Origin: Gammaproteobacteria bacterium
GTDB taxonomy: Bacteria; Pseudomonadota; Gammaproteobacteria; Arenicellales; Poriferihabitantaceae
NCBI GenBank assembly: GCA_028817405.1
Contig: JAPPPS010000105.1
Coordinates: 6,757 to 70,756, forward strand
Reading direction: 5' to 3'
Length of the DNA: 64,000 bases
Shown here piece by piece: positions 34 through 15,414 of the stretch (positions are counted from its first letter, which is position 1; every line of letters starts with the position of its first letter). The position numbers were made by a program, and so were the translations under genes. The notes under the pieces were generated by a model, which did no database searches, was not told the DNA's origin, and saw only the letters and a program-made list of their open reading frames with translations.

Positions 34-846
34 TCATACATGTCCAGTAAATAAACATGCTGGATGATTTGTATTTGAATTTTCCGCGGCGATTCGGTAC
101 GCGTTTTTATCCAACCGTTCTTTGGCGAAAGCGTAGTACTCTTCGACAATCTCAAACCCCATGTACCGACGTTTGCGCATCTTGCTGACCACCGCCACCT
201 GGCCGGAGCCGAGGAACGGGTCGAGAACCAAGTCGCCTTCTTCGCTGGTATAAGCGAGAATCTTTTCCACCACCTCGGCCGGCAACTTGGTCGGCGTTTT
301 CTTGTCGCCGTGCCAGTATTCCCGTTTAATCGTCCATACATCTTCCATGTCACGGTAACGCAAACTGCCGCCGTTTTCCGCCTTCGCGCTTTTGTCGAAT
401 CGCGCGTTCGGGAAAAACTTGCGCTTGGCGTCGTCCTTGCATAAAAAAATGCAGTGGTAATGCGAGGTCACAAACCGGCGGCGGCAGGCGACGCCGAACT
501 GGTATTTCCAGACGATGTGGTTGACGGTGACAAATCCAATGTCATCCGCCGCAATCAAAATATCTTTCAGGTTGTTCCAGCCGGAAAAAACGAACACGCT
601 GCCGGTCGGTTTGACGACGCGGTACACTTCCCGCATCCACGCCTGCGTAAAGTCGGCGTATTGCGACGCGGGGATTTCGTTGTAGCCGTCCATCACCCGC
701 GACGCGGTTCGGTTGTAGTTGCTTCGCTGCGCTTTGAAGTCGATGGCGAAAGGCGGGTCGGTGATGACCAAGTCCACCGCGCCGTCGGGCAAACGCCGCA
801 TCCCCGCGACGCAGTCGGCGTTGTAAATTTTGTCGGTGAATTTCAT
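34..846 (-). CDS. DNA methyltransferase, beta-class N6-adenine/N4-cytosine (N6_N4_Mtase family)
   Basis: ORF 34..867. Motif IV 'VITDPPFAIDF' lies near the N-terminus and motif I 'LVLDPFLGSGQ' near the C-terminus. Start taken at MKFTDKIYNADC (846). Visibly less GC-rich than the adjacent der. Confidence 0.85.
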   Translation of the reverse strand: MKFTDKIYNADCVAGMRRLPDGAVDLVITDPPFAIDFKAQRSNYNRTASRVMDGYNEIPASQYADFTQAWMREVYRVVKPTGSVFVFSGWNNLKDILIAADDIGFVTVNHIVWKYQFGVACRRRFVTSHYHCIFLCKDDAKRKFFPNARFDKSAKAENGGSLRYRDMEDVWTIKREYWHGDKKTPTKLPAEVVEKILAYTSEEGDLVLDPFLGSGQVAVVSKMRKRRYMGFEIVEEYYAFAKERLDKNAYRIAAENSNTNHPACLFTGHV

Positions 847-876
847 CGCGCCAATCCCCGCGGCCATCCTACCACG

Positions 877-2385
877 CTACTTCTTCCCCCGGCCCGAGCG
901 TTTCTTGGCGCGGCGTGGCGGGGCGGGCGCGGGGGCGAACGGGTTGTCGGCGTTGCGGGGGATGATGCGCACCGGGGTGCCGGTGAGGCGGAAGGCGCGG
1001 GCGAAGTGACGCGCCAGGTATCGGCGGTAGCCGGCCGAGAGTTTGCCGGCGAGGTTGCCGTGCACCACGATGACCGGCGGGTTTTTGCCGGATTGATGCG
1101 CGAACTTGAGGCGCACCGGGCGGCGTTTGTGCATTGGCGGCGGCGCGCGCGTCACCGCTTCTTGCAATGCGCGGTTGACCGGCGCGGTGGGCAAGTCGGC
1201 GAATGCGCCGTCAAAAGCGCGCAGCGCGGCCGGCATGATGCGGCCGAGGTTGGAGCCGCGCAGCGCCGAGACGAACAAGATTTCCGGATCCGGCAAAAAC
1301 GGCAGTTTGCGCTCCAATTCGCTTTCGATTTTGCGCCGCTGCCGGGCTTCCAAGCGGTCCCACTTGTTCACCACCACCACCAGCGACCTCCCCAAGTCGC
1401 GGATGATGCCGGCGATGGCGGCGTCTTGAAACCCGATTTCGCAAGTCGCGTCTAACACTAACAGCGCGACATTCGCGGCCTCGACCGCCTGCAATGCTTT
1501 GATGACCGAGAATTTCTCGACCGTCTCGCCGGCGCGCACGCGCGATTTTTTGCGCACGCCCGCGGTGTCGATGAGGATGCAGCGCCGGCCGTCGAATTCC
1601 ACCGGCACGCGCACGCTGTCGCGGGTGGTGCCGGGCGTGGCGCTGACCAGCAAGCGCGGCGCGCGCAGCAGGCGGTTGGCGAGGGTGGATTTGCCGGCGT
1701 TCGGCCGCCCGGCCAGTACGATGACCGGCCGGCCGGCATCGGCATCGGCATCGCCATCGCCATCGGCGGCCGCGGCATCCGCGTCCGCGGCGAATTCCCC
1801 GTCGTCCATGCCGCAACGCGCCAGCGCGGCCGCGAGCATTTCCGCCACCCCATCGCCGCGTTTGGCTGAGATGGCGAACGGCGCGCCCAGGCCTAATTCC
1901 TGAAACTCGGCCGCAGCCAACTCGGCCTCCACGCCTTCGCTTTTGTTCACCACCACCAGCACCCGCGCGCCGCTCGCCCGCAACCGCGCGCCGATGTCGC
2001 GGTCCGGCGCGACCAAGCCGTCCGCGGCGTCGACCATGAACAGCGTCACCTGCGCTTCGTCGATGGCGACTTCCACCTGCTCGCGAATCAACGCCGCGAA
2101 GGGATTCACGGTATCGGCATCACCGGCGGCAAAACCGTCACCGTCGCGGCCGAGAACCCCGCCGTCGCGGCCGAGAACCCCGTCGTCGCCGCCGCGGATG
2201 TCCTCCAACCCCCCGGTATCCACCGCCAAAAATTTCCGGCCGCCGAGTTGCCCGCGGCCGTACAGCCGGTCGCGGGTCACGCCCGGCTGGTCGTCGACAA
2301 TCGCATCGCGCGAGGCGGTCAGGCGGTTGAACAGCGTCGACTTGCCGACATTCGGCCGACCGACCAGGGCGAGCACCGGGAGCAT
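877..2385 (-). CDS. der: ribosome-associated GTPase Der (EngA), two tandem G domains
   Basis: Two P-loops, 'GRPNVGKSTLFNRL' and 'GRPNAGKSTLANRL', plus DTGG/DTAG and NKxD motifs and a KH-like C-terminus. Start set at MLPVLALVGRPNVGKS (ATG 2385); the ORF-track upstream extension is rejected. Confidence 0.95.
   Translation of the reverse strand: MLPVLALVGRPNVGKSTLFNRLTASRDAIVDDQPGVTRDRLYGRGQLGGRKFLAVDTGGLEDIRGGDDGVLGRDGGVLGRDGDGFAAGDADTVNPFAALIREQVEVAIDEAQVTLFMVDAADGLVAPDRDIGARLRASGARVLVVVNKSEGVEAELAAAEFQELGLGAPFAISAKRGDGVAEMLAAALARCGMDDGEFAADADAAAADGDGDADADAGRPVIVLAGRPNAGKSTLANRLLRAPRLLVSATPGTTRDSVRVPVEFDGRRCILIDTAGVRKKSRVRAGETVEKFSVIKALQAVEAANVALLVLDATCEIGFQDAAIAGIIRDLGRSLVVVVNKWDRLEARQRRKIESELERKLPFLPDPEILFVSALRGSNLGRIMPAALRAFDGAFADLPTAPVNRALQEAVTRAPPPMHKRRPVRLKFAHQSGKNPPVIVVHGNLAGKLSAGYRRYLARHFARAFRLTGTPVRIIPRNADNPFAPAPAPPRRAKKRSGRGKK
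2141..2182. repeat. perfect 21-bp tandem duplication inside der (encodes GVLGRDG x2)
   Basis: The unit ccgtcgcggccgagaaccccg occurs at 2141-2161 and again at 2162-2182. Confidence 0.9.
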
Positions 2386-2497
2386 TGGATGAGACGGTTC
2401 AACGGCCGCGGATGCAAAAACGGTAGCGGCGACAACAGCGATGACGGTGACGGCAAACCCGGCGACGGTGGCGGCGCAATAATGCAAACCGCGACGG

Positions 2498-3742
2498 TCA
2501 CTCGGCCGCGTGCAACGCCCACACGCTGAGGCGGCCGCCGGCCGAGAACACCGCGAACTGGCCCGGCCCCGCGGCCAGCGCCACCACCGCGCCGCCGCCC
2601 AAGTTGCGTTTTTCCAGCAGTTGGCCGTCGGCCGCGTCCAGCGCATACAGATTGCCGGCCGCGTCGCCGACCACCACCCGCGCGCCCCCGCCGACCACCA
2701 ACGGGCGGCTCATGCCGTGGCCGCGAAACCCCTCCTGCGTCCACAACACCTCGCCGCTGCCGGCGTCCAGCGCCACCACCGCGCCGAGGTCGGCGGTGAC
2801 CAACAGCCGCCCGCCGCCCAACGCCATCGGCAGCCGCGACGACACTTCGGCCTTCCACTGCAGCGCCGCATCCTGCAGGCGCAGCGCCGCGACATGGCCC
2901 TGGTAAGTGGCGATAAACAGCGTCGCGGCCGAGACCAGCGGCGCGCTGTCGGTGTCGGTCAGGCGCTCCAACTCGTTGCGCCCGCTGGCGAACGACACTT
3001 CGGTCTCCCAATACTCGCGCCCGGTGACCACGCTGTTGGCGACCAATTTGCCGCTTGCCAGGCCGGTGAAAACCGCGTCGCCGCTAATCAGCGGCGGGGA
3101 ATCGCCGTGGATGCTGAGCGCCGGCATGTCGCGCTCAAACGACCACACCGACTCGCCGGTGGCGGCGTCCAAGCCGGCCACCAAGCCGTCCGCGGTGCGC
3201 GCCACCACGCGCGAGATGCCGACCGCGGGAATGGCGGAAATCTGGCGGCCGAGCGGCGCCGCCCACAAGGTTTCGCCGCTCGCCGCGTCCAAGGCGATGA
3301 CGCGGCCGTCGTCCAGCGCCACCGCGACCACGCCGCCTTCGTCAACCGCGACCGCGCCGGCCATGGCGATGCCGACCCCGGAGAACACCGCCGCGCCCAA
3401 CTCCGATTCCAAGTCGCGCCGCCATTGGATTGCGCCGTCGGCCGGCGCGAGTTTGAACACGCTGCTGCGGCTGGCGACGTAGAGCGCGCCGCCGGCACCG
3501 TCGCGAACAACGCCACCGTCGCCGCCACCCCCATCACTGTAGGCCGGTTGCAGCAGCGCGTAACCGTCCTCGGGGCCGTCGCCCAAGTCGCGCCGCCACA
3601 GCATTTTCAACTCCGACAGGCCCGCGGCCCGCGGCAATTCCTGCGGCGCGACCGGCTCCTGGTAGGTGTCCCAGCGCGCCGCGCGCTCGCCGGCCTGGCA
3701 ACCCGCGAGTAGCAACCCGGCGACCGCCAACCACCGCTTCAC
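2498..3742 (-). CDS. bamB: outer-membrane assembly lipoprotein BamB (PQQ-like beta-propeller)
   Basis: Lipobox 'LLLAGC' in the signal peptide, repeated beta-propeller blades, and the conserved position between yfgM and der. Confidence 0.9.
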   Translation of the reverse strand: MKRWLAVAGLLLAGCQAGERAARWDTYQEPVAPQELPRAAGLSELKMLWRRDLGDGPEDGYALLQPAYSDGGGGDGGVVRDGAGGALYVASRSSVFKLAPADGAIQWRRDLESELGAAVFSGVGIAMAGAVAVDEGGVVAVALDDGRVIALDAASGETLWAAPLGRQISAIPAVGISRVVARTADGLVAGLDAATGESVWSFERDMPALSIHGDSPPLISGDAVFTGLASGKLVANSVVTGREYWETEVSFASGRNELERLTDTDSAPLVSAATLFIATYQGHVAALRLQDAALQWKAEVSSRLPMALGGGRLLVTADLGAVVALDAGSGEVLWTQEGFRGHGMSRPLVVGGGARVVVGDAAGNLYALDAADGQLLEKRNLGGGAVVALAAGPGQFAVFSAGGRLSVWALHAAE

Positions 3743-5984: not shown

Positions 5985-6997
5985 CACGGCGCGCCGATGC
6001 TGAAACGCGCGAACAAGCCGTCGCGGCCGGCCGTGAACGCCACCGGCTGGCCGCGGTATTCCACGCTCACGCCCGCGGGATTGCCGATGAAAACCGAGAA
6101 CGGCAACGCGCCGCGCAAGGTCACGCGCGCGCCGCGGGCCACGCTGCGGTAAATCAACCGCCGGCCGTCGCCGTCGTGGACTTCAATCCACGATTCCTCG
6201 CGCACCGCGAGAATGATTTGCTCCGGTGGGGGGTTGGTGGGGATGGGGGTTGCCGCGGCCGCCGTGGTGTTGGTGGCCGCGGAATTATCGGCCGCGACGG
6301 CCGCGACGGTAATTTGCGCGGTGGATTGCGCGGCCGCGGCATTACCGGCCGAATTCGCCGGCGAATCCACCGCGGAATCCACCGCCGATTCCGCCGCCAA
6401 CGGCACCGTCGCCTCCGACTCCGGAAAATTCGGCTCCGGCAGCACCGTCGTATCGGCGACGCCGGGGCCCGCGCCGCCCGCGGCATCGAGCGCGCCGTTC
6501 CAGGCCGGCGCGGCCGGCGGCGACTCCTCCACCGCGCCGGGCCACTTCCGCCAATCCGCGCCCGGCGACAGCGACGGCAGCGCCAAAGAAAGCCCGTCGT
6601 CCGCGCCCTGCCAGACCCACAGCGCCGCCAAAAAAACCACCGCGGCCGCGCCGAACGCCAGCGCCCACCGCTGCCGCGCCTGCTCCAACACGCCGTGCGC
6701 CTGCCGCGACTCGGCGCGCAAGGCGATGCGCGCGCCGCGCGGCGGCAGGCCGGACTTGTGCGCGTCGATGGCGTGGTCGATGGAAACGCCGAGAAGATTG
6801 GCGTAGTTCCGCCAGTAGCCGAGGATGTAGGCGCGGCCCGGCAGGTTGGCGTAGTCGTCGGCTTCCAGCGCGCGCAACTGCCGCTCGGCGAGGCACAACG
6901 CCCACGCCACTTCGGCCCGCGACCAGCCGCTCAACTCGCGCTGTTCGCGCAGCAACTTGCCGGGCGTGGCCGACCGGGGCGGGCGTTTTTTTGCCAC
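5984..6997 (-). CDS. rodZ: cytoskeleton protein RodZ-like (XRE-type HTH, TM segment, DUF4115-like C-terminus)
   Basis: HTH 'LLREQRELSGWSRAEVAWALCL', a following 'YILGYWRNYANLLGV' segment, a TM segment, a low-complexity linker and a C-terminal beta domain 'ILAVREESWIEVHDGDGRRLIY'. GTG start at 6997. Lies at the rlmN-hisS synteny position. Confidence 0.8.
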   Translation of the reverse strand: MAKKRPPRSATPGKLLREQRELSGWSRAEVAWALCLAERQLRALEADDYANLPGRAYILGYWRNYANLLGVSIDHAIDAHKSGLPPRGARIALRAESRQAHGVLEQARQRWALAFGAAAVVFLAALWVWQGADDGLSLALPSLSPGADWRKWPGAVEESPPAAPAWNGALDAAGGAGPGVADTTVLPEPNFPESEATVPLAAESAVDSAVDSPANSAGNAAAAQSTAQITVAAVAADNSAATNTTAAAATPIPTNPPPEQIILAVREESWIEVHDGDGRRLIYRSVARGARVTLRGALPFSVFIGNPAGVSVEYRGQPVAFTAGRDGLFARFSIGAP

Positions 6998-7005
6998 CGG
7001 CGGAA

Positions 7006-8313
7006 TTAGCCGGCCGCGGCGGCCGCGGGCTCGGGCGCGGTTTCATCACGCGCGGCCGGCGACGGTGTCGACATTTTCGGCCGCGACGACGGCATTTCCG
7101 GCGACGGTGCCGGCACCGCCGGCGCCGACACCCAGCGTCGCGAACGCCGGGTGCGGTCGGTGAACTTCCCCGCCAATTGGCCGCAGGCCGCGTCGATGTC
7201 GTCGCCGCGGGTTTTGCGCGTTACCGTGAACAGATTGCGGCCAATGAGAATGTCGCGGAAGCGCTCGACCGCGGCCGGCGACGGGCGACGGTAGTCGATG
7301 TCCGGCGACGGGTTGAACGGAATCAGGTTGATTTTGGCCGGCATGTCGCCGAGTAATTTCGCCAGCGCGCGCGCCTGCGCCGAACTATCGTTGACCCCGG
7401 CTAACAGCACATATTCGAAAGTGATGCGGGTGCGCGGGCGCGCCGCCGCGTACCGGCGGCAGGCCGCGAGCAATTCGGCAATCGGATATTTTTTGTTGAG
7501 CGGCACCAGTTGCTCGCGCAGCGCGTCATCCGGCGCGTGCAACGACACCGCCAAACTGACCGGGCAGGCGGATGCCAAGCGGTCGATGGCCGGCACCAAC
7601 CCCGCGGTGCTGAGCGTGACCCGCCGCTTCGACAAACCGAACGCGCAGTCGTCCAGCATGAGGCGCAGCGCGGCCACCACGGCGTCGAAGTTCAACAGCG
7701 GCTCGCCCATGCCCATGAGGACGATGTTGGTGATGGCGGTTTTGGTTTTGGTTTCGCCGCGGCCGTGGTCACCGTCACCGTCGCCGGGGTCGCCGTCGAC
7801 ACCGTCACCATCGATGTCACGGTCACCGTGGTCGCCGTCGACACCGTCACCATCGATGTCACGGTCGCCCGCCAATTCCCCCGCGGCCACCCACACCTGG
7901 CCGATGATTTCGTCCACCGTCAGGTTGCGGTTGTAGCCGTGCCGGGCGGTGGCGCAGAAGGTGCAGTTCAAGCCGCAGCCGACCTGCGACGACACGCACA
8001 AAGTGCCGCGCCCGGCCTCGGGGATGAACACGGTCTCAACGGCGTTGCCGTCGGCCAGCCGCAGCAGCCATTTGCGCGTGCCGTCCGCGGCCCGCCGGCG
8101 CGCCGCGACCGCGGGGAATTCAATCGCCGCGTCGCGGTTCAGGCGCGCGCGCAGCGCCTTGCTTAAGTCGGTGAACGCGTCCGGCGCGGTGACCCGGCGC
8201 TGGTAAATCCACCGCAGCGCCTGGCCCGCGTGGAATCGCTTCTCGCCCATGCGCGCGAAGAAGTCCTCCAACGCCGCGCGGTCGAGGGCGGCCAAGTTGG
8301 CGGCGGGTTGCAT
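7006..8313 (-). CDS. rlmN: 23S rRNA/tRNA m2A radical-SAM methyltransferase RlmN
   Basis: '[13 protein letters not shown]', the radical SAM '[10 protein letters not shown]' motif, and 'MGMGEPLLN'. Start taken at [11 protein letters not shown] (ATG 8313). Contains a Gly/Asp-rich insert. Confidence 0.93.
7789..7872. repeat. 42-bp tandem duplication inside rlmN (encodes [14 protein letters not shown] x2) within a GTCACC-type tract
   Basis: Unit gtcgccgtcgacaccgtcaccatcgatgtcacggtcaccgtg at 7789-7830. It repeats from 7831 with divergence only at the end of the unit. Confidence 0.9.
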
Positions 8314-8359
8314 GGCGGCGGCGACGGTGGTGGCGGCGAAAACGCGGGCGGCGCGCCGG

Positions 8360-8794
8360 TTAACCTCGGGTGCGCGGGCAAATCTCGTGGTCAGCGAAGA
8401 AAAACGCGATTTCCACGGCCGCGGTCTCGGCCGCATCCGAACCATGCACCGCGTTTTGCTCGACATCCGTGGCGAAGTCGGCGCGAATCGTGCCGGCGGC
8501 CGCGGCCGCCGGGTCGGTCGCCCCCATCACCTCGCGGTTGCGCGCGATGGCGTCCTCGCCTTCCAGCACCTGCGCGACGATGGGGCCGGAGGTCATGAAT
8601 TCAACCAAGTCGGCGTAGAACGGCCGCTCGCGGTGCACCGCGTAAAACTGCTCGGCTTGCTCACGGCTCAGGCGCAGCATGCGCGCCGCGACGATGCGCA
8701 GGCCCGCGTCCTCGAAGCGACGGTAGATTTGGCCGATGACATTTTTCCCGACCGCGTCGGGCTTGATGAGGGACAGCGTGCGCTGGGTCGCCAT
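8360..8794 (-). CDS. ndk: nucleoside diphosphate kinase
   Basis: '[28 protein letters not shown]' and 'NAVHGSD'. ATG at 8794; the longer ORF-track start is rejected. Confidence 0.95.
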
Positions 8795-8884
8795 GGTGGG
8801 CTCCGGGGATGCGTGGATGGCGGCGCGGCGGCCCGCGTTGCCGGGCGGCCCGCGCCCGTGGTGGCGGACGGAACAGGGGCGGCG

Positions 8885-8914
8885 ATTATAACCGTCAGGC
8901 GCGCTGCCGGGCAA
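8885..8914 (-). promoter_or_regulatory. candidate sigma70 promoter for ndk (-35 TTGCCC, 18-nt spacer, -10 TATAAT)
   Basis: A perfect TATAAT on the minus strand (plus-strand attata 8885-8890) lies immediately after the mtaB stop. A weak -35 sits at 8909-8914. A perfect -10 hexamer is conspicuous against this GC background. Confidence 0.35.
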
Positions 8915-10433
8915 TCAGCACGCCGTCGCCGAGCGCGGTGACTTCGACCGCGGCAAACTGGCCGCTCGGCGCCGGCGCGCGCGCGTCGAACAGCACCGGA
9001 AAATAGTCGGCGGCGCGGGCGCGGGTGGGGTGGCGCATGGCGGTGATTTCGGGCGCGGCGGCCGTGGCGACGCGGCCCTCGACCAACACTTCCAGCCGCG
9101 CGCCGATGCGCCGCTTGGCGACCCTTTCCCACACCGCCCGGCCCATCGCGCGCACTGCCGCGGCGCGCCGCTTGCGCTCGGCCGGCGGCACTTGGCGCGG
9201 CGGCGGAATGCGCGCCGCCGGGGTGCCGCGCCGCGGCGAATACGCAAACACATGCGGCCAGGCGATTTCCAAGTCGTCGACCGCGGCCAGGGTGCGGCGA
9301 AACTGCGCATCGGTCTCGGTGGGGAAGCCGACCAAGATGTCCGCGCTCAAGGTTAAATGCGGCGCGGCGCGGCGCAAGGCGGCGATGCGTTCATAAATCA
9401 TGTCGCGGTTGGCGCGGCGCCTCATGCGCTTGAGAATCAGCGTGTCGGCGCTTTGCAGCGAGAGGTGCAGTTGCGGGCAGAGCGCGCCGGCGGCGATGAG
9501 GTCGATGAGGGAGTCGGTGATGTGGGCCGGGTCGATGGAACTCAGGCGCAGGCGGACATCGCCGGCGATGGTTGCCAGGCGGCGCAGCAATGCGGCCAAG
9601 GGTTCGCCGCTGTCGGTGGGGAAATCCGCGCCAAAATCGTCGCCAAAATCATCGCCGTACGAGCCGACATCGACGCCGCAAATCACCACCTCGCGGAAGC
9701 CGTTCGCCGCCAACTTTTCCACTTGCGCGCATACCCTATCCGGCGGAAACGAGCGACTCGGCCCGCGCGCTTGGTGGATGATGCAAAAGGTGCAGCCGCG
9801 GTCGCAGCCCTGCTGCACCTGCACGAAGGCGCGCGCGCGGCCGTCAAAACCGCCGAGCAATTCGGACGGCAAACTGAGGTCACGGTCGAGCGCGGCGAAA
9901 TCGTCGACCACAACTTTCGGCACGCTTGGCGGCAACTCGCCGGTCGATTCGCCGGACAATTCGCCGGCTGATTCACCGGCCAATTCACCGGCGCCGGCGA
10001 GCAACGGGCGCAATAACGCCGGGATATCGAGTTTGCGCGCGTTGCCGACGACCGCGTCGACGCCGGGAATGGCGGCGCAGGCGGCCGCGTCCATCTGCGC
10101 GTAGCAGCCGGTGACCACGATGCGCGCAGATGGATGGCGGCGAATCGCGCGGCGCACCAACTGCCGCGCCTGGCGGTCGGCGGCGGCGGTGACGGTGCAG
10201 GTGTTAATCAGGCAGAGGTCGGCCGCGGCATGCGCGTCGACGCGGCGGTGGCCCTGGCGGCTGAGTTGCTGCGCGAGATGCTCCGACTCGAAACTGTTGA
10301 CCTTGCAGCCGAGGGTGAAAATGGCGAACCGCTTGGGGGCGGCGACGGTGGTGGCAGTGGCATCGGCGGCGGCCGGCGCGACGGTTGATTCCGGCGACGG
10401 CCGCAACAGCGGATTAACGGCGACGGAAACCAT
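8895..10433 (-). CDS. mtaB: radical-SAM methylthiotransferase, MtaB-like (MiaB/RimO family)
   Basis: N-terminal '[13 protein letters not shown]' (MtaB-type UPF0004 domain), radical SAM 'CDRGCTFC' and a TRAM-like C-terminus. In-frame repeats [20 protein letters not shown] and [12 protein letters not shown]. Confidence 0.85.
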
Positions 10434-10549
10434 CGTCTCAAACGGTGGGTACGGCGGCGATGCGCACGGCGGCGGGCGCGACGGTGGCGACGGTGGCGGG
10501 CGCGACCGCCAGAGCCGCGGCGGTGAATGCGGCGACCGGGCGCGGTCCC

Positions 10550-10879
10550 TTAATTAACAGTGAAACTCTCGCCGCAGCCGCACTGCTCGGTCACATTCGG
10601 GTTTTTGAAGTGGAACGCCGCCGACAGGCCGTCCTCGATGTAGTCGATTTCGGTGCCGTCGATGAATTCCAAATCCGCGGCCGCGACGATGACTTGCACC
10701 CCGCGACTCTCAAACACGCGGTCGGCGTCGCCGGCCTCGCGCGCGTAGTCGAGGTGGTACGCCAGCCCCGAGCAGCCGGAATTCTTGACGCTCAAGCGCA
10801 ACCCGCGCAACCCCCCGCCGCGCGATTGCAAGTGAGATTTAACCCGCGCAGCCGCGGGCGGAGTGAGGGTGATGGACAT
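10550..10879 (-). CDS. iron-sulfur cluster insertion protein, IscA/ErpA (HesB) family
   Basis: 109 aa with 'GCSGLAY' and the C-terminal 'CGCGESF' cysteine ligands. Confidence 0.9.
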   Translation of the reverse strand: MSITLTPPAAARVKSHLQSRGGGLRGLRLSVKNSGCSGLAYHLDYAREAGDADRVFESRGVQVIVAAADLEFIDGTEIDYIEDGLSAAFHFKNPNVTEQCGCGESFTVN

Positions 10880-11016
10880 GGGATTCGTGGAATGGCGGTT
10901 AACGATGCGCGGAAGTTACCACACCGGCGCGCGGCTGTCATGCCGGTTTGCGGCGGGGGCGCGCATCGCTTATACTGCCGCGCAAATTTCTTTTGTCCGC
11001 TTGGGGGCGGAGCGCG

Positions 11017-11448
11017 ATGCCGTTTTATGAATACCGCTGCGAATCTTGCGGCCATGAGTTGGAGGCGCTGCAGAAAATCGCCGATGCGCCGCTGGTTTAT
11101 TGCCCGGAATGCGGCGAGGCGCGGCTGAAAAAGTTGGTGTCGAAGTCGGCGTTTCGCCTGAAAGGCGGCGGCTGGTATGCGACCGACTTCAAGCACAGCG
11201 GCGCGCGGCCGGGCAAGGATGGCGCGTCCAAAGACGACTCCAAGGACGGCGACTCGGCGCACGCCGGCGGTAAAGGCGGCGACGGTGATGGCGACGGTAA
11301 AAGCGGCGGTGGCGGCGACGGTAAAACCGGCGACGGTGGCGGCGACGGTCGCGGCGGTAAAACCGGCGGCGACGGTGGCAGCGACGGTGGTGGCGGCAAA
11401 ACCGCGGGGCAGTCGACGGCCGCGGAGAAGTTGCAAAAAAGCGCGTGA
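11017..11448 (+). CDS. FmdB-family zinc-ribbon protein with a Gly/Asp-rich C-terminal tail
   Basis: 'MPFYEYRCESCGHELEALQ...YCPECG' CxxC...CxxC ribbon. ATG at 11017. The tail GDGDGDGKSGGGGDGKTGDGGGDG is encoded by a GGCGAC/GGTGAC array. Confidence 0.85.
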   Translation: MPFYEYRCESCGHELEALQKIADAPLVYCPECGEARLKKLVSKSAFRLKGGGWYATDFKHSGARPGKDGASKDDSKDGDSAHAGGKGGDGDGDGKSGGGGDGKTGDGGGDGRGGKTGGDGGSDGGGGKTAGQSTAAEKLQKSA

Positions 11449-11570
11449 CGCGGCGCGCTGAATCGTCCAAATTACCGTCGCGCCACCGCTGAACCTTTAC
11501 CTTAGCTTTCGCCAACAGCCGCCACCGTCGCCATCAAGCGTCGCCGCCCTACCCTATTTCCGCCCCCGCC

Positions 11571-13373
11571 ATGCGCACCCATTTAAGCGGCCAATTGCGC
11601 CGCGCCGACATCGGCCAGCGCGTCTCGCTGGCCGGCTGGGTGTTGAACCGCCGCGACCACGGCGGGGTGATTTTCATCGACTTGCGCGACCGCAGCGGCG
11701 TGGTGCAGGTGGTCGCGGACCCGGACGCGCCGGGGCCGTTTGCGGTGGCCGACAAGGCGCGCGCCGAGTTCGTGCTGCGCGTGGAAGGCGCGGTGCGCGC
11801 GCGGCCGGACGGCACCGTCAACCCCGACTTGCCGAGCGGCGACATCGAGGTGGCGGCGCAAACCATCGAGTTGCTGAACCGCGCCGAGCCGCTGCCGTTT
11901 CAAATCGACGACGAGGATTTGAGCGAGGCGACGCGCCTGAAATACCGCTTCCTGGACCTGCGCCGCGCGCCGATGCAAACCGCGCTGCGCCTGCGCCACC
12001 GCGTGGTCAGCGCCATCCGCGGCTTCCTCGACGCGCGCGATTTTGTCGACATCGAAACGCCGGTTCTCACCCGCTCCACCCCCGAAGGCGCGCGCGATTA
12101 TTTGGTGCCGAGCCGCACCCATCCCGGCGCGTTTTTCGCGCTGCCGCAGTCGCCGCAGTTGTTCAAGCAACTCCTGATGGTCGGCGGCTTCGAGCGCTAT
12201 TACCAAATCGCGCGCTGCTTCCGCGACGAAGACTTGCGCGCCGACCGCCAGCCGGAATTCACCCAGTTGGATGTCGAGATGGCGTTCGTCGACGAGGCCG
12301 AAGTGATGGCGTTGATGGAGGAGATGCTGCGCGAGGTTTTTGAACTCGCGGCCGGCGTCGAGTTGCCTGCGCCGTTGCCGCGCATGACTTGCGCCGAGGC
12401 GCTGGCGCGATACGGCAGCGACCGCCCGGACTTGCGCGTGGATTTGGAATTGACCGAGTTGACCGACTTGATGACGACGGTGGAGTTCAAGGTGTTCTCG
12501 GGCCCGGCCAGCGACCCGACCGGGCGCGTGGCGGCGTTGCGCGTGCCGGGCGGCGGGGCTGACGGTGGCGACGGTGGCGCCGGCATCTCGCGCGCGCAAA
12601 TCGACCACTACACCGAATTCGTCGGCCGCTTCGGCGCCAAGGGCTTGGCGTATATCAAAGTGGGCGACGCATCGGCCGGGCGCGACGGCTTGCAATCGCC
12701 GATTCTGAAATTCCTGCCGGACCAAGTGCTGGCGCAAATCCTCGAGCGCAGCGGCGCGGCCAACGGCGATTTAATCTTCTTCGGCGCGGACAAAGCGGCG
12801 GTGGTGAACGCCGCGCTCGGCGCGTTGCGGGTGGAAATCGGCCGCGACTTGTCGCTCGCCGCGCCGGGCTGGCGGCCGCTGTGGGTGGTGGACTTCCCGC
12901 TGTTGGCGTGGAACGAAGATGCGAAGCGGTTTGAAGCGCAGCACCACCCGTTCACCGCGCCGCGCGCGGCCGACATCGAGGACTTGGAAAGCGCGCCCGA
13001 GCGGGTACTGTCGCGCGCCTACGACTTGGTTTTGAACGGCGTGGAAATCGGCGGCGGCTCGATTCGCATCCACCAAGCCGAGTTGCAGCAGCGCGTCCTG
13101 GCAACGCTCGGCATCGACGCGGCGCAGGCGCGCGCGCAGTTCGGCTTTCTGCTCGACGCGCTGCAATACGGCGCGCCGCCGCACGGCGGCATCGCTTTCG
13201 GCATCGACCGCATCGCCGCCATGTTGGCCGGCGCCGACTCCATCCGCGATGTCATCGCCTTCCCCAAAACCCAAAGCGCATCGTGCCTGCTCACCGAAGC
13301 CCCGGGCGCCGTCGACGCCGGGCAATTGCGGGAGTTGGGGTTGCGGGCGGCGAAAACGCGGACCGGGAAATGA
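11571..13373 (+). CDS. aspS: aspartate--tRNA ligase
   Basis: 600 aa. OB-fold N-terminus '[22 protein letters not shown]', '[18 protein letters not shown]' and the 'GGGSIRIH' class II motif 3 region. Confidence 0.97.
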
Positions 13374-14632
13374 ATACAATGGCGCGCAAACCTGTCCCCA
13401 AAAACAAACTGTATGTCGGCGACAATTTGGATGTGATGCACGGCATGAATAGTTGCACGGTGGATTTGATTTATCTCGACCCGCCGTTTAATTCCAAGCG
13501 CATGTATCGCGCCCCCATCGGCAGTTCGGCGGACAAAAAGGCCGCAAAGAAAGGCCGACAAGTCGGCTTCCACGACATTTGGGTGTGGGAGAAGGATGTC
13601 GACATTCGACTGCTGTCTTTTTACGAGAGTCATCCCGACTTGTTCACCTACATCGATTTGGTGGGCAAGATGAACGGCGCGTCAATGAAAACCTATTTGA
13701 CTTTTATGGCGCAGCGGTTGATTGAAATGCACCGCATTCTTAAGGACACCGGCAGCGTCTATTTGCACTGCGACCCTTATGCCAGTCACTATCTGAAACT
13801 TTTGATGGACGAGATTTTCGGCAAGCACAATTTTCTCAACGAAATGATTTGGTACTACACCAACGCGTCCCGCGGCAAAAAGAAACTGGCAAATTCCCAT
13901 GATGTGATTTTCTGGTATTGCAAAAACAACGCTCAATACACTTTCAACCGGGACCGCATCCTGCAGGAATTCGCCAGCGGCATGACCGAGTGGCGGTACA
14001 GCAAAGGCGGGCAGGCCGGGCAAAAAATGCCGAAAGGGAAAACCCCCGACGATGTGTTCATCTTGCCGTCGCTGAACGCGATGTCAAAAGAACGCACCGG
14101 TTACCCAACGCAAAAACCGCTGGCGTTGCTCGACCGCATTATTCAAGCGTCGAGCGTTGAGGGCGACATGGTGATGGACCCGTTCTGCGGCTGCGCGACC
14201 ACTTGCGTGTCGGCGCAAAATCACCACCGCAATTGGATTGGCATCGATTTGGAGGATGTGGCAATCGATTTGGTGGTTGACCGGCTGAGCGAAACCGACA
14301 ACGGTCAAACCACGATTCAGTTCAACGATTTCATCGCCAGCAAAACGCCGCCGGTGCGCACCGACCTTGAGACATTGACCTGGACCAAGAAACGCATTCA
14401 CGCGCACTGCTTCGACAAACAAAGCGGCCGTTGCAACGGCTGCAAGAAACCATTCGAGGCGTATCACTTGGAAATCGACCACATCTACCCTAAGTCGCTC
14501 GGCGGGGCGTGGCTGCTGGAAAACTTGCAACTGTTATGCGGCAACTGCAACCGCATCAAAGGCGACCGCCCGATGGAATACTTGCGCGCGCGACTGGCCG
14601 AACGCCGCGAACGGCAAAAAGCGGTTTTCTAA
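13370..14632 (+). CDS. DNA methyltransferase (beta-class, DPPF) fused to a C-terminal HNH nuclease domain
   Basis: Motif IV '[12 protein letters not shown]' and motif I '[12 protein letters not shown]'. C-terminal HNH: '[25 protein letters not shown]...[14 protein letters not shown]'. The ATG at 13370 overlaps the aspS TGA (ATGA); an alternative ATG lies at 13379. About 50% GC by eye. Confidence 0.85.
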
Positions 14633-14636
14633 ACGG

Positions 14637-15380
14637 TTAACCGTCGCCGCATTCCGCGCACTGTGGATTCTTCGGCAGTTGCATGCGTTGCCATTCCATG
14701 GCGCGGGCGTCGAACAGCCATACCACGCCGTGCAGTTGACCGTTGCCGAGCAGAATGTTGACGCCTTCCATGGCTTGCATCGCGCCGATGACGCCGACCA
14801 ACGGGGAAATCACGCCTTCCATTGCGCAGGTGGCGGTGTCGACCGAATCGTCCGGATACATGCACCTGTAGCACGGGCTGGCCGGCGCGCGCGGGTCGAA
14901 AGCGGTGACCTGGCCCTCCCAGCGAATCGCGGCCCCGGACACTAACGGCGTGCGGGTTTGCAGCGCCACCCGGTTCATCTCGAATCTGGTGGGGAAGTTG
15001 TCGGTGCAGTCAAGCAGCAGGTCGGCGGCGGCCGCGCCGTCGCGCAAGTCGCCGGCGTCCAGCGAGTAGTCGAGCGTGGCGATGTCGACTTGCGGGTTGA
15101 GCGCGCGCAGGGTGGCGGCGGCCGACGCGGCTTTGAGTTCGCCGATGTCGGCGTGGGCGTGGATGATTTGCCGCTGCAGGTTGGATTCGTCGACGCGGTC
15201 GAAGTCGGCAAGGGTCAAATGGCCGACCCCGGCCGCGGTTAAGTACATCGCGGCCGGCGCGCCGAGGCCGCCCATGCCGACGATGAAAACCCGCGCCTCG
15301 CGCAGTTTTAATTGCCCGGCCTCGCCCACCTGCGGCAGACGAATCTGGCGGCTGTACCGGGTGTGAAAATCGCTTGCCAT
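14637..15380 (-). CDS. MoeB/ThiF-family adenylyltransferase (molybdopterin-synthase adenylyltransferase-like)
   Basis: 'YSRQIRLPQVGEAGQLKL', Rossmann 'VGMGGLGAPAAMYL' and two CxxC pairs (CYRC, CAEC). ATG at 15380; an alternative GTG lies at 15398. Confidence 0.85.
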   Translation of the reverse strand: MASDFHTRYSRQIRLPQVGEAGQLKLREARVFIVGMGGLGAPAAMYLTAAGVGHLTLADFDRVDESNLQRQIIHAHADIGELKAASAAATLRALNPQVDIATLDYSLDAGDLRDGAAAADLLLDCTDNFPTRFEMNRVALQTRTPLVSGAAIRWEGQVTAFDPRAPASPCYRCMYPDDSVDTATCAMEGVISPLVGVIGAMQAMEGVNILLGNGQLHGVVWLFDARAMEWQRMQLPKNPQCAECGDG

Positions 15381-15414
15381 CGAAGCAGTATGCCACACGG
15401 CGCGGGCGCGGGCG

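Follow-up and report, generated by a model that had tools for sequence, protein, structure and literature searches.

What is the gene that fills the entire gap between aspS and moeB in a 64,000-nucleotide stretch of a gammaproteobacterial genome, and how did it come to lie there? The stretch (Gammaproteobacteria bacterium, Arenicellales, Poriferihabitantaceae; assembly GCA_028817405.1, contig JAPPPS010000105.1, forward strand, positions 6,757 to 70,756) is referred to here, at its full length, as the window, and positions are counted from its first letter. According to both the list of open reading frames (ORFs) and the raw sequence, the gap is taken up by one gene (13370/13379-14632, plus strand), which encodes a DNA methyltransferase joined in a single chain to an HNH nuclease domain. 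A preliminary description of the locus offered two explanations for it: a single-polypeptide restriction-modification (R-M) enzyme, or a methyltransferase carried by an HNH homing-type nuclease that had inserted, precisely and without a scar, beside an essential gene. The first of these is the better supported. By analogy with known systems, we consider it probable that the gene encodes a stand-alone, single-polypeptide enzyme of the R-M type that follows Type IIC logic, a reading that draws on the architecture of the protein, its invariant catalytic residues, its diversifying target-recognition domain (TRD) and the solitary, defence-slot contexts of the gene.

The N-terminal part of the protein is a methyltransferase. 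In the 420-residue numbering used here, which counts from the upstream start at 13370, a full-length match to PF01555 (N6_N4_Mtase) spans residues 31-302 (E 1.1e-48; 166.6 bits against a cut-off of 26.7; profile positions 1-219 of 221). Within it lie, in this order, the catalytic motif IV, DPPF, at residues 37-40 (13478..13489, plus strand), a TRD at residues ~164-240 (13859..14089, plus strand) that is hypervariable in our alignments, and motif I, DPFCGCATT, at residues 270-278 (14177..14203, plus strand), recognised from the sequence as the S-adenosylmethionine-binding motif. The order IV, TRD, I is the circular permutation of the beta class, to which the protein thus belongs, and the complete beta-class methyltransferase of the preliminary description is upheld. 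D-P-P-F is invariant in an alignment of the window protein with 33 family clusters and conserved at 90% or more in a second alignment with 119 clusters, and P-F-x-G-x-A of motif I is invariant in all 120 sequences of the latter. An Asp in DPPF favours N6-adenine as the methylated base, N4-cytosine enzymes usually having SPPY/F, and the fusion thus probably targets N6-adenine. Compared with the PDB, the family profile matches M.RsrI, M.BceJIV, M.MboIIA, CcrM and Type III Mod over residues ~10-305, and an AlphaFold2 model of the fusion protein (mean pLDDT 81.6, pTM 0.82) superposes on the same methyltransferases (Foldseek E in the range of 5e-17 to about 1e-16; target-normalised TM of 0.74-0.83). 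None of the PDB matches is a solved structure covering both the methyltransferase and the HNH domain. NCBIfam and PADLOC also know only parts of the protein: Type II/III MTase models of PADLOC match it, and neither collection has a model of the whole fusion. The likeness of the TRD to that of M.RsrI was considered as a guide to the recognition motif and rejected, the identity being only about 30%.

The C-terminal part is a nuclease domain on a linker. The linker and a pre-HNH helix occupy residues ~306-354 (14285..14431, plus strand), with a conserved R-T-D motif and low pLDDT at 309-315. They are followed by the HNH domain, CxxC ... D-H ... N ... CxxC-N (14432..14587, plus strand; D-H codons 14477-14482), which is identified by Pfam, PDB matches and invariance. 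Pfam places HNH/HNH_5 at residues 355-406 (E 1e-13), and the profile thresholds are passed with 49.8 bits for PF14279 (cut-off 27.5) and 48.3 bits for PF01844 (cut-off 21.4). The key residues are C355, C358, D370, H371, N385, C390, C393 and N394, which make this an HNN variant, as is also seen in Cas9 and endonuclease VII. In the PDB, residues ~335-410 match the HNH domains of Cas9/IscB, the En domain of a group II intron maturase, McrA and T4 endonuclease VII. All eight HNH and zinc residues are invariant in the alignment of 34 sequences; in that of 120, D-H, both N and three of the Cys are invariant and C355 is conserved at 90% or more. Since the catalytic and zinc residues are conserved in this way, the nuclease appears catalytically competent and seems to evolve under purifying selection, and we regard it as a putative live enzyme. 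The canonical zinc-finger HNH that the preliminary description had seen is thus real, and the degeneracy that it had named beforehand as fatal to its proposal does not appear across the 120 clusters.

The joining of these two parts is a property of a whole family. A search of 5.8 billion proteins yielded the family set used here, the 120 best clusters (50-80% identity), and all 120 share the methyltransferase plus HNH architecture; the single-chain fusion is thus genuine and conserved. Named sources include Candidatus Spongiihabitans, Candidatus Halichondribacter symbioticus, Treponematales, Planctomycetaceae, Ignavibacteria and metagenome-assembled genomes of Rickettsiales, and several clusters fall on one megabase-sized contig, so some genomes must be multi-copy. 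A query with only the linker and the HNH domain finds 401 representative clusters at E of at most 1e-10, which consist of fusions of 400-470 aa and many small stand-alone HNH proteins. The TRD behaves differently from the rest of the protein. The TRDs of the 120 sequences form 39 clusters, and core and TRD identities are uncorrelated (r = 0.14): 308 of 468 pairs with cores at least 80% identical have TRDs below 30%, and 501 pairs with cores below 62% identical have TRDs of at least 60%. The type found in the window is the commonest (48/120) and is kept across phyla at 62-78% identity while the cores are at about 55%; with a Rickettsiales protein it shares 78% of the TRD and only 56% of the core. 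Conversely, the closest relatives, P0003 and P0004, have cores 86-90% identical to that of the window protein and TRDs unrelated to it. These comparisons show shuffling of the TRD among cores, and the TRD, the presumed specificity module, is swapped like a cassette within the family. Passages of Furuta et al. 2010 (PMC2853133) document such exchange of specificity modules in restriction systems of Types I, IIG and III and describe allelic substitution of the TRD as changing specificity in Type IIC/IIG enzymes, a likeness to the present family.

How would such a protein work? The N-terminal ~300 residues would act as a beta-class, probably N6-adenine, methyltransferase whose central TRD reads a specific DNA sequence, and a linker of ~45 residues would tether to it a zinc-stabilised HNH nuclease of beta-beta-alpha-metal fold. 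One TRD would direct both activities. Host sites would thus stay methylated, and unmethylated sites on incoming DNA would be nicked, or cut nearby by the HNH domain after dimerisation or two-site cooperation, by the same logic as in Type IIC/IIG and Type III enzymes. With Type IIC/IIG enzymes (MmeI, Eco57I, TstI, BpuSI) the protein has in common that nuclease, methyltransferase and recognition reside in one chain, that a single TRD serves both activities and that the genes are solitary. Those enzymes, however, are of 900-1300 aa, with an N-terminal PD-(D/E)XK nuclease and a gamma-class methyltransferase, whereas the fusion protein has 417 aa, with the beta-class methyltransferase first and the HNH domain at its C-terminus. 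It thus falls outside the canonical Type IIC/IIG build; it could work alike, and it is not homologous in build to the MmeI/Eco57I type. M.RsrI, M.BceJIV, M.MboIIA, CcrM and Type III Mod (EcoP15I) resemble its methyltransferase in fold, motif order, DPPF-type motif and central TRD. They differ in having no nuclease domain: R.RsrI, R.MboII and Res are separate proteins and CcrM is an orphan. R.MboII is itself of HNH type, according to the passage on it in PMC4081073. The HNH domain, in turn, has the Cys4-zinc beta-beta-alpha-metal fold and the D-H ... N ... N residues of the HNH nucleases KpnI, MnlI, Hpy99I, McrA and TagI and of the HNH domains of Cas9/IscB, and in McrA and TagI it is likewise a C-terminal module joined to a separate DNA-recognition module. 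In all of these, recognition is by a dedicated reader or a guide RNA complex and not, as here, by a catalytically complete methyltransferase.

The second part of the question, how the gene came to be wedged between aspS and moeB, can be approached through two metagenomic relatives, L001 and L003. Both share with the window the order Bax1-I, NTP_transferase, Zn_ribbon_8, aspS, fusion gene, after which L003 continues with yebC-ruvCAB and L001 with a C5-methyltransferase cluster and then yebC-ruvC. Between the window and L003 the aspartyl-tRNA synthetase (AspRS) is 86% identical and the fusion protein 82-88% in its conserved parts, with only 20% in the TRD region; between the window and L001 the values are 76% for AspRS and 74-83% across three segments of the fusion. 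In both comparisons aspS and the fusion gene resemble each other in the share of conserved residues that use the identical codon. The fusion gene has thus diverged in step with aspS, which fits a single acquisition before the three lineages split, and the matched divergences show it to be old and vertically inherited in the window lineage. In L003 the TRD was then replaced once in situ. A recent, precise and scar-free insertion is at odds with this congruence.

Vertical descent in this clade does not make it a core gene. A search for empty sites covered 80 aspS loci of GTDB representative genomes (AspRS identity at most 75%), and at none of them does the fusion gene lie downstream of aspS. Judged from this distribution, the window copy is an accessory, clade-restricted gene. 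The preliminary description had named a vertically inherited core gene as the contrary case; the inheritance holds within the clade, and the core status fails at the 80 other loci. aspS is followed by yebC-ruvC within 0.5-5 kb at 16 of the 80, and also in L001, L003 and L004, with a variable filling. In L004, the nearest non-carrier (AspRS 75%), the slot holds another gene and the intergenic DNA is too diverged to align. The gene in question (L004 5957-7954) encodes a Schlafen-group-3 (DUF2075) helicase. In L001, the fusion gene is followed at 7474-11520 by genes for a C5 DNA methyltransferase, a 750-aa protein and a DUF6339 protein. By its gene content, the aspS-yebC interval is thus a variable slot for accessory genes, with defence-type occupants in this clade. 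The distance between aspS and the fusion gene is 5 nt in the window (from the ATG at 13379), whereas the relatives have 72 and 106 nt there, and yebC-ruvC is not found in the 64-kb window. The tight wedging thus results from a later loss of spacer together with a rearrangement whose breakpoint lies at the 3' end of the fusion gene, moeB replacing the ancestral downstream neighbours yebC-ruvC, and does not testify to a precise insertion. In outline, an ancestor of this gammaproteobacterial clade gained one copy between aspS and yebC-ruvC, which has been transmitted vertically since then; in the window lineage the spacer to aspS shrank to at most 5 nt and a rearrangement brought moeB against the stop codon. 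Exact-sequence context look-ups with the window fusion protein and AspRS gave nothing on record.

Elsewhere in the family the gene lies in other places. The contexts examined show family members to be solitary, with no recurring partner gene; in particular, no res-like gene, such as a Type III system would have, adjoins the window copy (flanked by aspS and moeB) or any examined family member. In two genomes of the sponge-associated Candidatus Spongiihabitans, which is among the multi-copy carriers, copies lie between genes for an OYE oxidoreductase and a DUF1638 protein, between sufB and sufC, and between the purM side and pgsA (CDP-alcohol phosphatidyltransferase). The copy inside the suf operon (L245 5001-6236, Candidatus Spongiihabitans) is separated by 19 nt from sufB on its upstream side and by 61 nt from sufC on its downstream side, and there is no other foreign DNA there. 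Two further copies, at sulfatase|COQ7 and at alcohol dehydrogenase|deacetylase (HDAC), both end 16-18 nt from a convergent stop, and neighbours at metagenome loci include glutamate dehydrogenase (gdh), riboflavin synthase (ribE), glutamate racemase (murI), cysteine desulfurase and acyl-CoA dehydrogenase. A tandem pair lies between clpB and a CxxCxxCC gene, and elsewhere three copies occur within 6 kb. In ENA genomes of 1.7-2.7 Mb, arrays of two to three paralogues within 6 kb are found at L252 3607-4929, 5001-6329 and 8110-9351 and at L246 3575-4846 and 5001-6323; their members have near-identical N- and C-termini and different TRDs. Apart from an IS1595 transposase beside one IMG/VR copy, no recombinase, integrase or transposase is a neighbour in the contexts examined, and a search of six loci for flanking direct or inverted repeats (target duplications, terminal inverted repeats) gave only short, chance-level matches. 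By one route or another, the family clearly arrives at new loci as an ORF alone. In this it resembles the mobile R-M systems treated in passages of Furuta et al. 2010 (PMC2853133) and Zheng et al. 2016 (PMC4760077), where insertions at gene starts and stops and within operon-like clusters, links to synteny breaks and proliferation in symbiont genomes are described with no transposase or integrase. The systems in those passages are mostly two-gene Type II and often have long target duplications, unlike the window copy, which is old and at which no flanking duplication was found.

Several observations weigh against a one-protein R-M enzyme. No characterised enzyme of this build was found in the literature searched or in the PDB, so that the mechanism rests on analogy, and no description of a beta-class methyltransferase with a C-terminal HNH domain was found in that literature, which took in a 2014 review of Type II enzymes and a 2025 review of R-M biology, REBASE being outside its coverage. 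Each of the two domains belongs to a textbook family, and R-M enzymes of a single chain are familiar, but those characterised are large and join a gamma-class methyltransferase to an N-terminal PD-(D/E)XK nuclease. Furthermore, a lone HNH site cuts one strand, and double-strand restriction would thus need an oligomerisation step. Base composition is a further point. The fusion gene has 52.7% GC (GC3 0.71), close to the ~50% of the preliminary description, as against 67.9% (GC3 0.87) for aspS and 65.5% for the 64-kb window. It lies 12-15 GC points under its flanks in the window, L001 and L003 alike (genes compared: window 13379-14632, L001 6001-7254, L003 6001-7311) and has not ameliorated, although AspRS of the three lineages has diverged by 14-24%. 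Finally, long vertical retention beside an essential gene would also suit a housekeeping or epigenetic role, as would the dominance of one TRD type (48/120) that is better kept across phyla than the core.

These last points lead to the first of three other explanations, in which the protein is an orphan epigenetic or repair methyltransferase whose HNH domain nicks DNA according to methylation state, as a fused Dam/MutH-like enzyme, or is only a zinc-finger DNA-binding module. We think this unlikely. Rampant exchange among 39 TRD types, with multi-copy arrays besides, is not expected of a conserved regulatory mark, even if the window TRD type itself is 62-78% identical across phyla against about 55% for the core. 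The gene has been stable beside aspS in three diverged lineages, was found as 11 variants that are at least 90% identical and is probably co-transcribed with a housekeeping gene, all of which would suit such a role; yet the closest other relative, L004, lacks it, as do 79 further aspS loci, and relatives have genes of defence type in the slot. The window has another solitary beta-class methyltransferase directly after der, which would be in keeping with an orphan function, whereas the invariant D-H/N/N residues argue against a purely structural zinc finger. That the protein is instead a phage remnant, a phage anti-restriction methyltransferase with a free-standing HNH homing endonuclease at its 3' end, left behind as a moron or prophage scar, appears to us very improbable. 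Neither the window copy nor any of the 14 chromosomal contexts examined has phage genes at its flanks, the fusion is missing from the cultured-phage records, and across 120 clusters it is kept as one unit with an intact frame. The observations in favour of a phage origin are that many phage methyltransferases share 33-45% identity with the methyltransferase core, for which phrog_67 is the best PHROG, that the HNH module also occurs in many small stand-alone proteins, and that three IMG/VR contigs have full fusions, one of them beside tail-fibre genes.

Could the nuclease, then, serve to move the gene? In a selfish homing-type element, the HNH domain would cut unmethylated chromosomes that lack the gene, repair would copy the gene in and the methyltransferase would protect the carrier. 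Such an element would explain insertions of an ORF alone, without integrase, transposase or repeats, amid tightly packed housekeeping genes and even inside the suf operon, as well as the near-identical cores (93%) at different loci in the two Candidatus Spongiihabitans genomes and the paralogue arrays. Its HNH domain is closest to those of mobility and guide nucleases (group II intron En, IscB/Cas9), and passages of PMC2853133 and PMC4760077 document R-M genes that move and rearrange genomes without mobility genes. A homing enzyme, however, has a fixed, long target, and the variable TRD points the opposite way, to cut sites that differ between copies. There is no recurrent target site: all contexts differ, and adjacency to aspS is confined to one clade, where the divergence fits vertical descent. 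Among close genomes, no pair was obtained in which one has the gene and the other a clean empty site. Carriage by known mobile elements is rare: in 72,556 plasmid records and 50,697 phage records there is no full fusion, only methyltransferase-only relatives, and the full fusion accounts for 3 of the 80 best IMG/VR matches. We regard homing as quite unlikely. In the narrower form of site-specific homing at the aspS 3' end it was rejected, there being no recurrence and no instance at the 80 other aspS loci; the homing nuclease for an aspS site suggested in the preliminary description does not survive, since members outside the clade lie at unrelated sites and never beside aspS. Of the explanations weighed, a single-polypeptide R-M enzyme remains the one that we favour.

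The immediate surroundings of the gene bear on its start and its expression. Upstream lies aspS, for a class II aspartyl-tRNA synthetase (11571..13373, plus strand; Pfam tRNA-synt_2/GAD/OB, E 5e-122), the sole neighbour kept beside the fusion gene in related genomes, the adjacency being found also in L001 and L003. Its 3' end reads GGG AAA TGA, with the stop at 13371-13373. The fusion gene, supported by Pfam, the protein search and the AlphaFold2 model, encodes 417 aa when read from the ATG at 13379 (13379..14632, plus strand; stop TAA at 14630-14632). This ATG, 5 nt past the aspS stop, is the start in the identical NCBI protein P0001 (417 aa, 100%), which begins MARKP, and the MARKP start is also found in the homologues P0002 (80%) and P0003 (73-78%). 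GGGAA (13365..13369, plus strand), a putative Shine-Dalgarno-like motif read from the sequence, lies 9 nt 5' of it, in the last codons of aspS. An alternative ATG (13370..13372, plus strand) overlaps the aspS TGA as ATGA and would add Met-Asn-Thr; in the 90%-identity cluster, which has 11 members, it is chosen in two gene calls (MSTMARKP, MNTMARKL). It is made of the last base of the aspS Lys codon and the TG of the stop, and its conservation may thus be incidental. The start is therefore ambiguous, 13370 or 13379. The layout given in the preliminary description, with the ATGA overlap at 13370-13373, a gene filling the gap and 4 nt to the moeB stop, agrees with the sequence, and the overlapping ATG exists, as one of two possible starts. 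A sigma-70 promoter scan upstream of the fusion gene found no promoter-like site, and this, together with a spacing of at most 5 nt, makes co-transcription with aspS probable. The translational coupling proposed earlier fares accordingly: co-expression with aspS is plausible from the overlap or 5-nt spacing and the lack of a promoter, but a designed coupling is not supported, with spacers of 72-106 nt in the relatives, and coupling is no conserved trait of the clade.

On the downstream side, a 4-nt spacer (14633..14636) separates the fusion gene stop from that of moeB (molybdopterin-synthase adenylyltransferase; 14637..15398, minus strand; Pfam ThiF), whose product clears the NCBIfam MoeB subfamily cut-off (292 bits against 266). 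By comparison with the relatives, where yebC-ruvC follows, this spacer marks the rearrangement breakpoint; neither L001 nor L003 has moeB at the fusion gene. Since the convergent genes leave no room for a terminator, the moeB transcript could end at terminator-like hairpins with T-runs that lie antisense to the fusion gene (14029-14050 and 14093-14112, minus strand); the scan counted 7 hairpins, only slightly more than the 4.6 expected from shuffled sequence. A perfect 12-bp palindrome, ACGGTTAACCGT, lies at 14633-14644, across the spacer between the convergent stops; it was considered as a signal and rejected as probably due to chance, there being 82 perfect 12-bp palindromes in the 64-kb window. 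Upstream of aspS, the product of a Zn_ribbon_8 (FmdB-type) gene (10948-11448, plus strand) has a long low-complexity tail rich in Gly, Asp and Lys, and synteny of this gene with aspS is kept at most of the 80 related loci. At the edge of the window lies the second solitary beta-class N6_N4 methyltransferase gene (34-867, minus strand; 277 aa, without HNH), for which the nearest NCBIfam models, under their cut-offs, are CcrM/YhdJ-like. Its GC content is 54.8%, as against 69% for der/engA (877-2646, minus strand), which ends 9 nt upstream of it, and it is thus another low-GC methyltransferase gene pressed on a housekeeping gene, in this case of the bamB-der cluster.

Taken alone, the window copy is the more ordinary part of these findings, an old accessory gene of defence type in a variable slot after aspS. 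The interest lies at the level of the family, in its compact build, its cassette-like specificity, its arrays and its insertions into operons. Tentatively, and with somewhat less confidence than we have in the R-M reading itself, we suggest that it represents a large, uncharacterised class of compact (~400-450 aa) R-M enzymes, which would swap TRD cassettes of ~75-120 residues, spread as bare ORFs into housekeeping loci and form multi-copy arrays, including in a sponge-associated lineage. If active, these proteins would be the smallest known kind of complete R-M unit and the first to be studied that is made of a beta-class methyltransferase and an HNH nuclease. The 39 natural TRD types among 120 sequences would then offer a compact scaffold for new DNA specificities, and the family a model for defence specificity that evolves by module exchange. 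The insertions of bare ORFs, one of them in a suf operon, the tandem arrays and the break in synteny at the 3' end of the window copy bear on how R-M genes move without mobility genes, and, if breaks made by the HNH domain also drove its own insertion and the adjacent rearrangements, the gene would be a self-mobilising one-gene R-M element.

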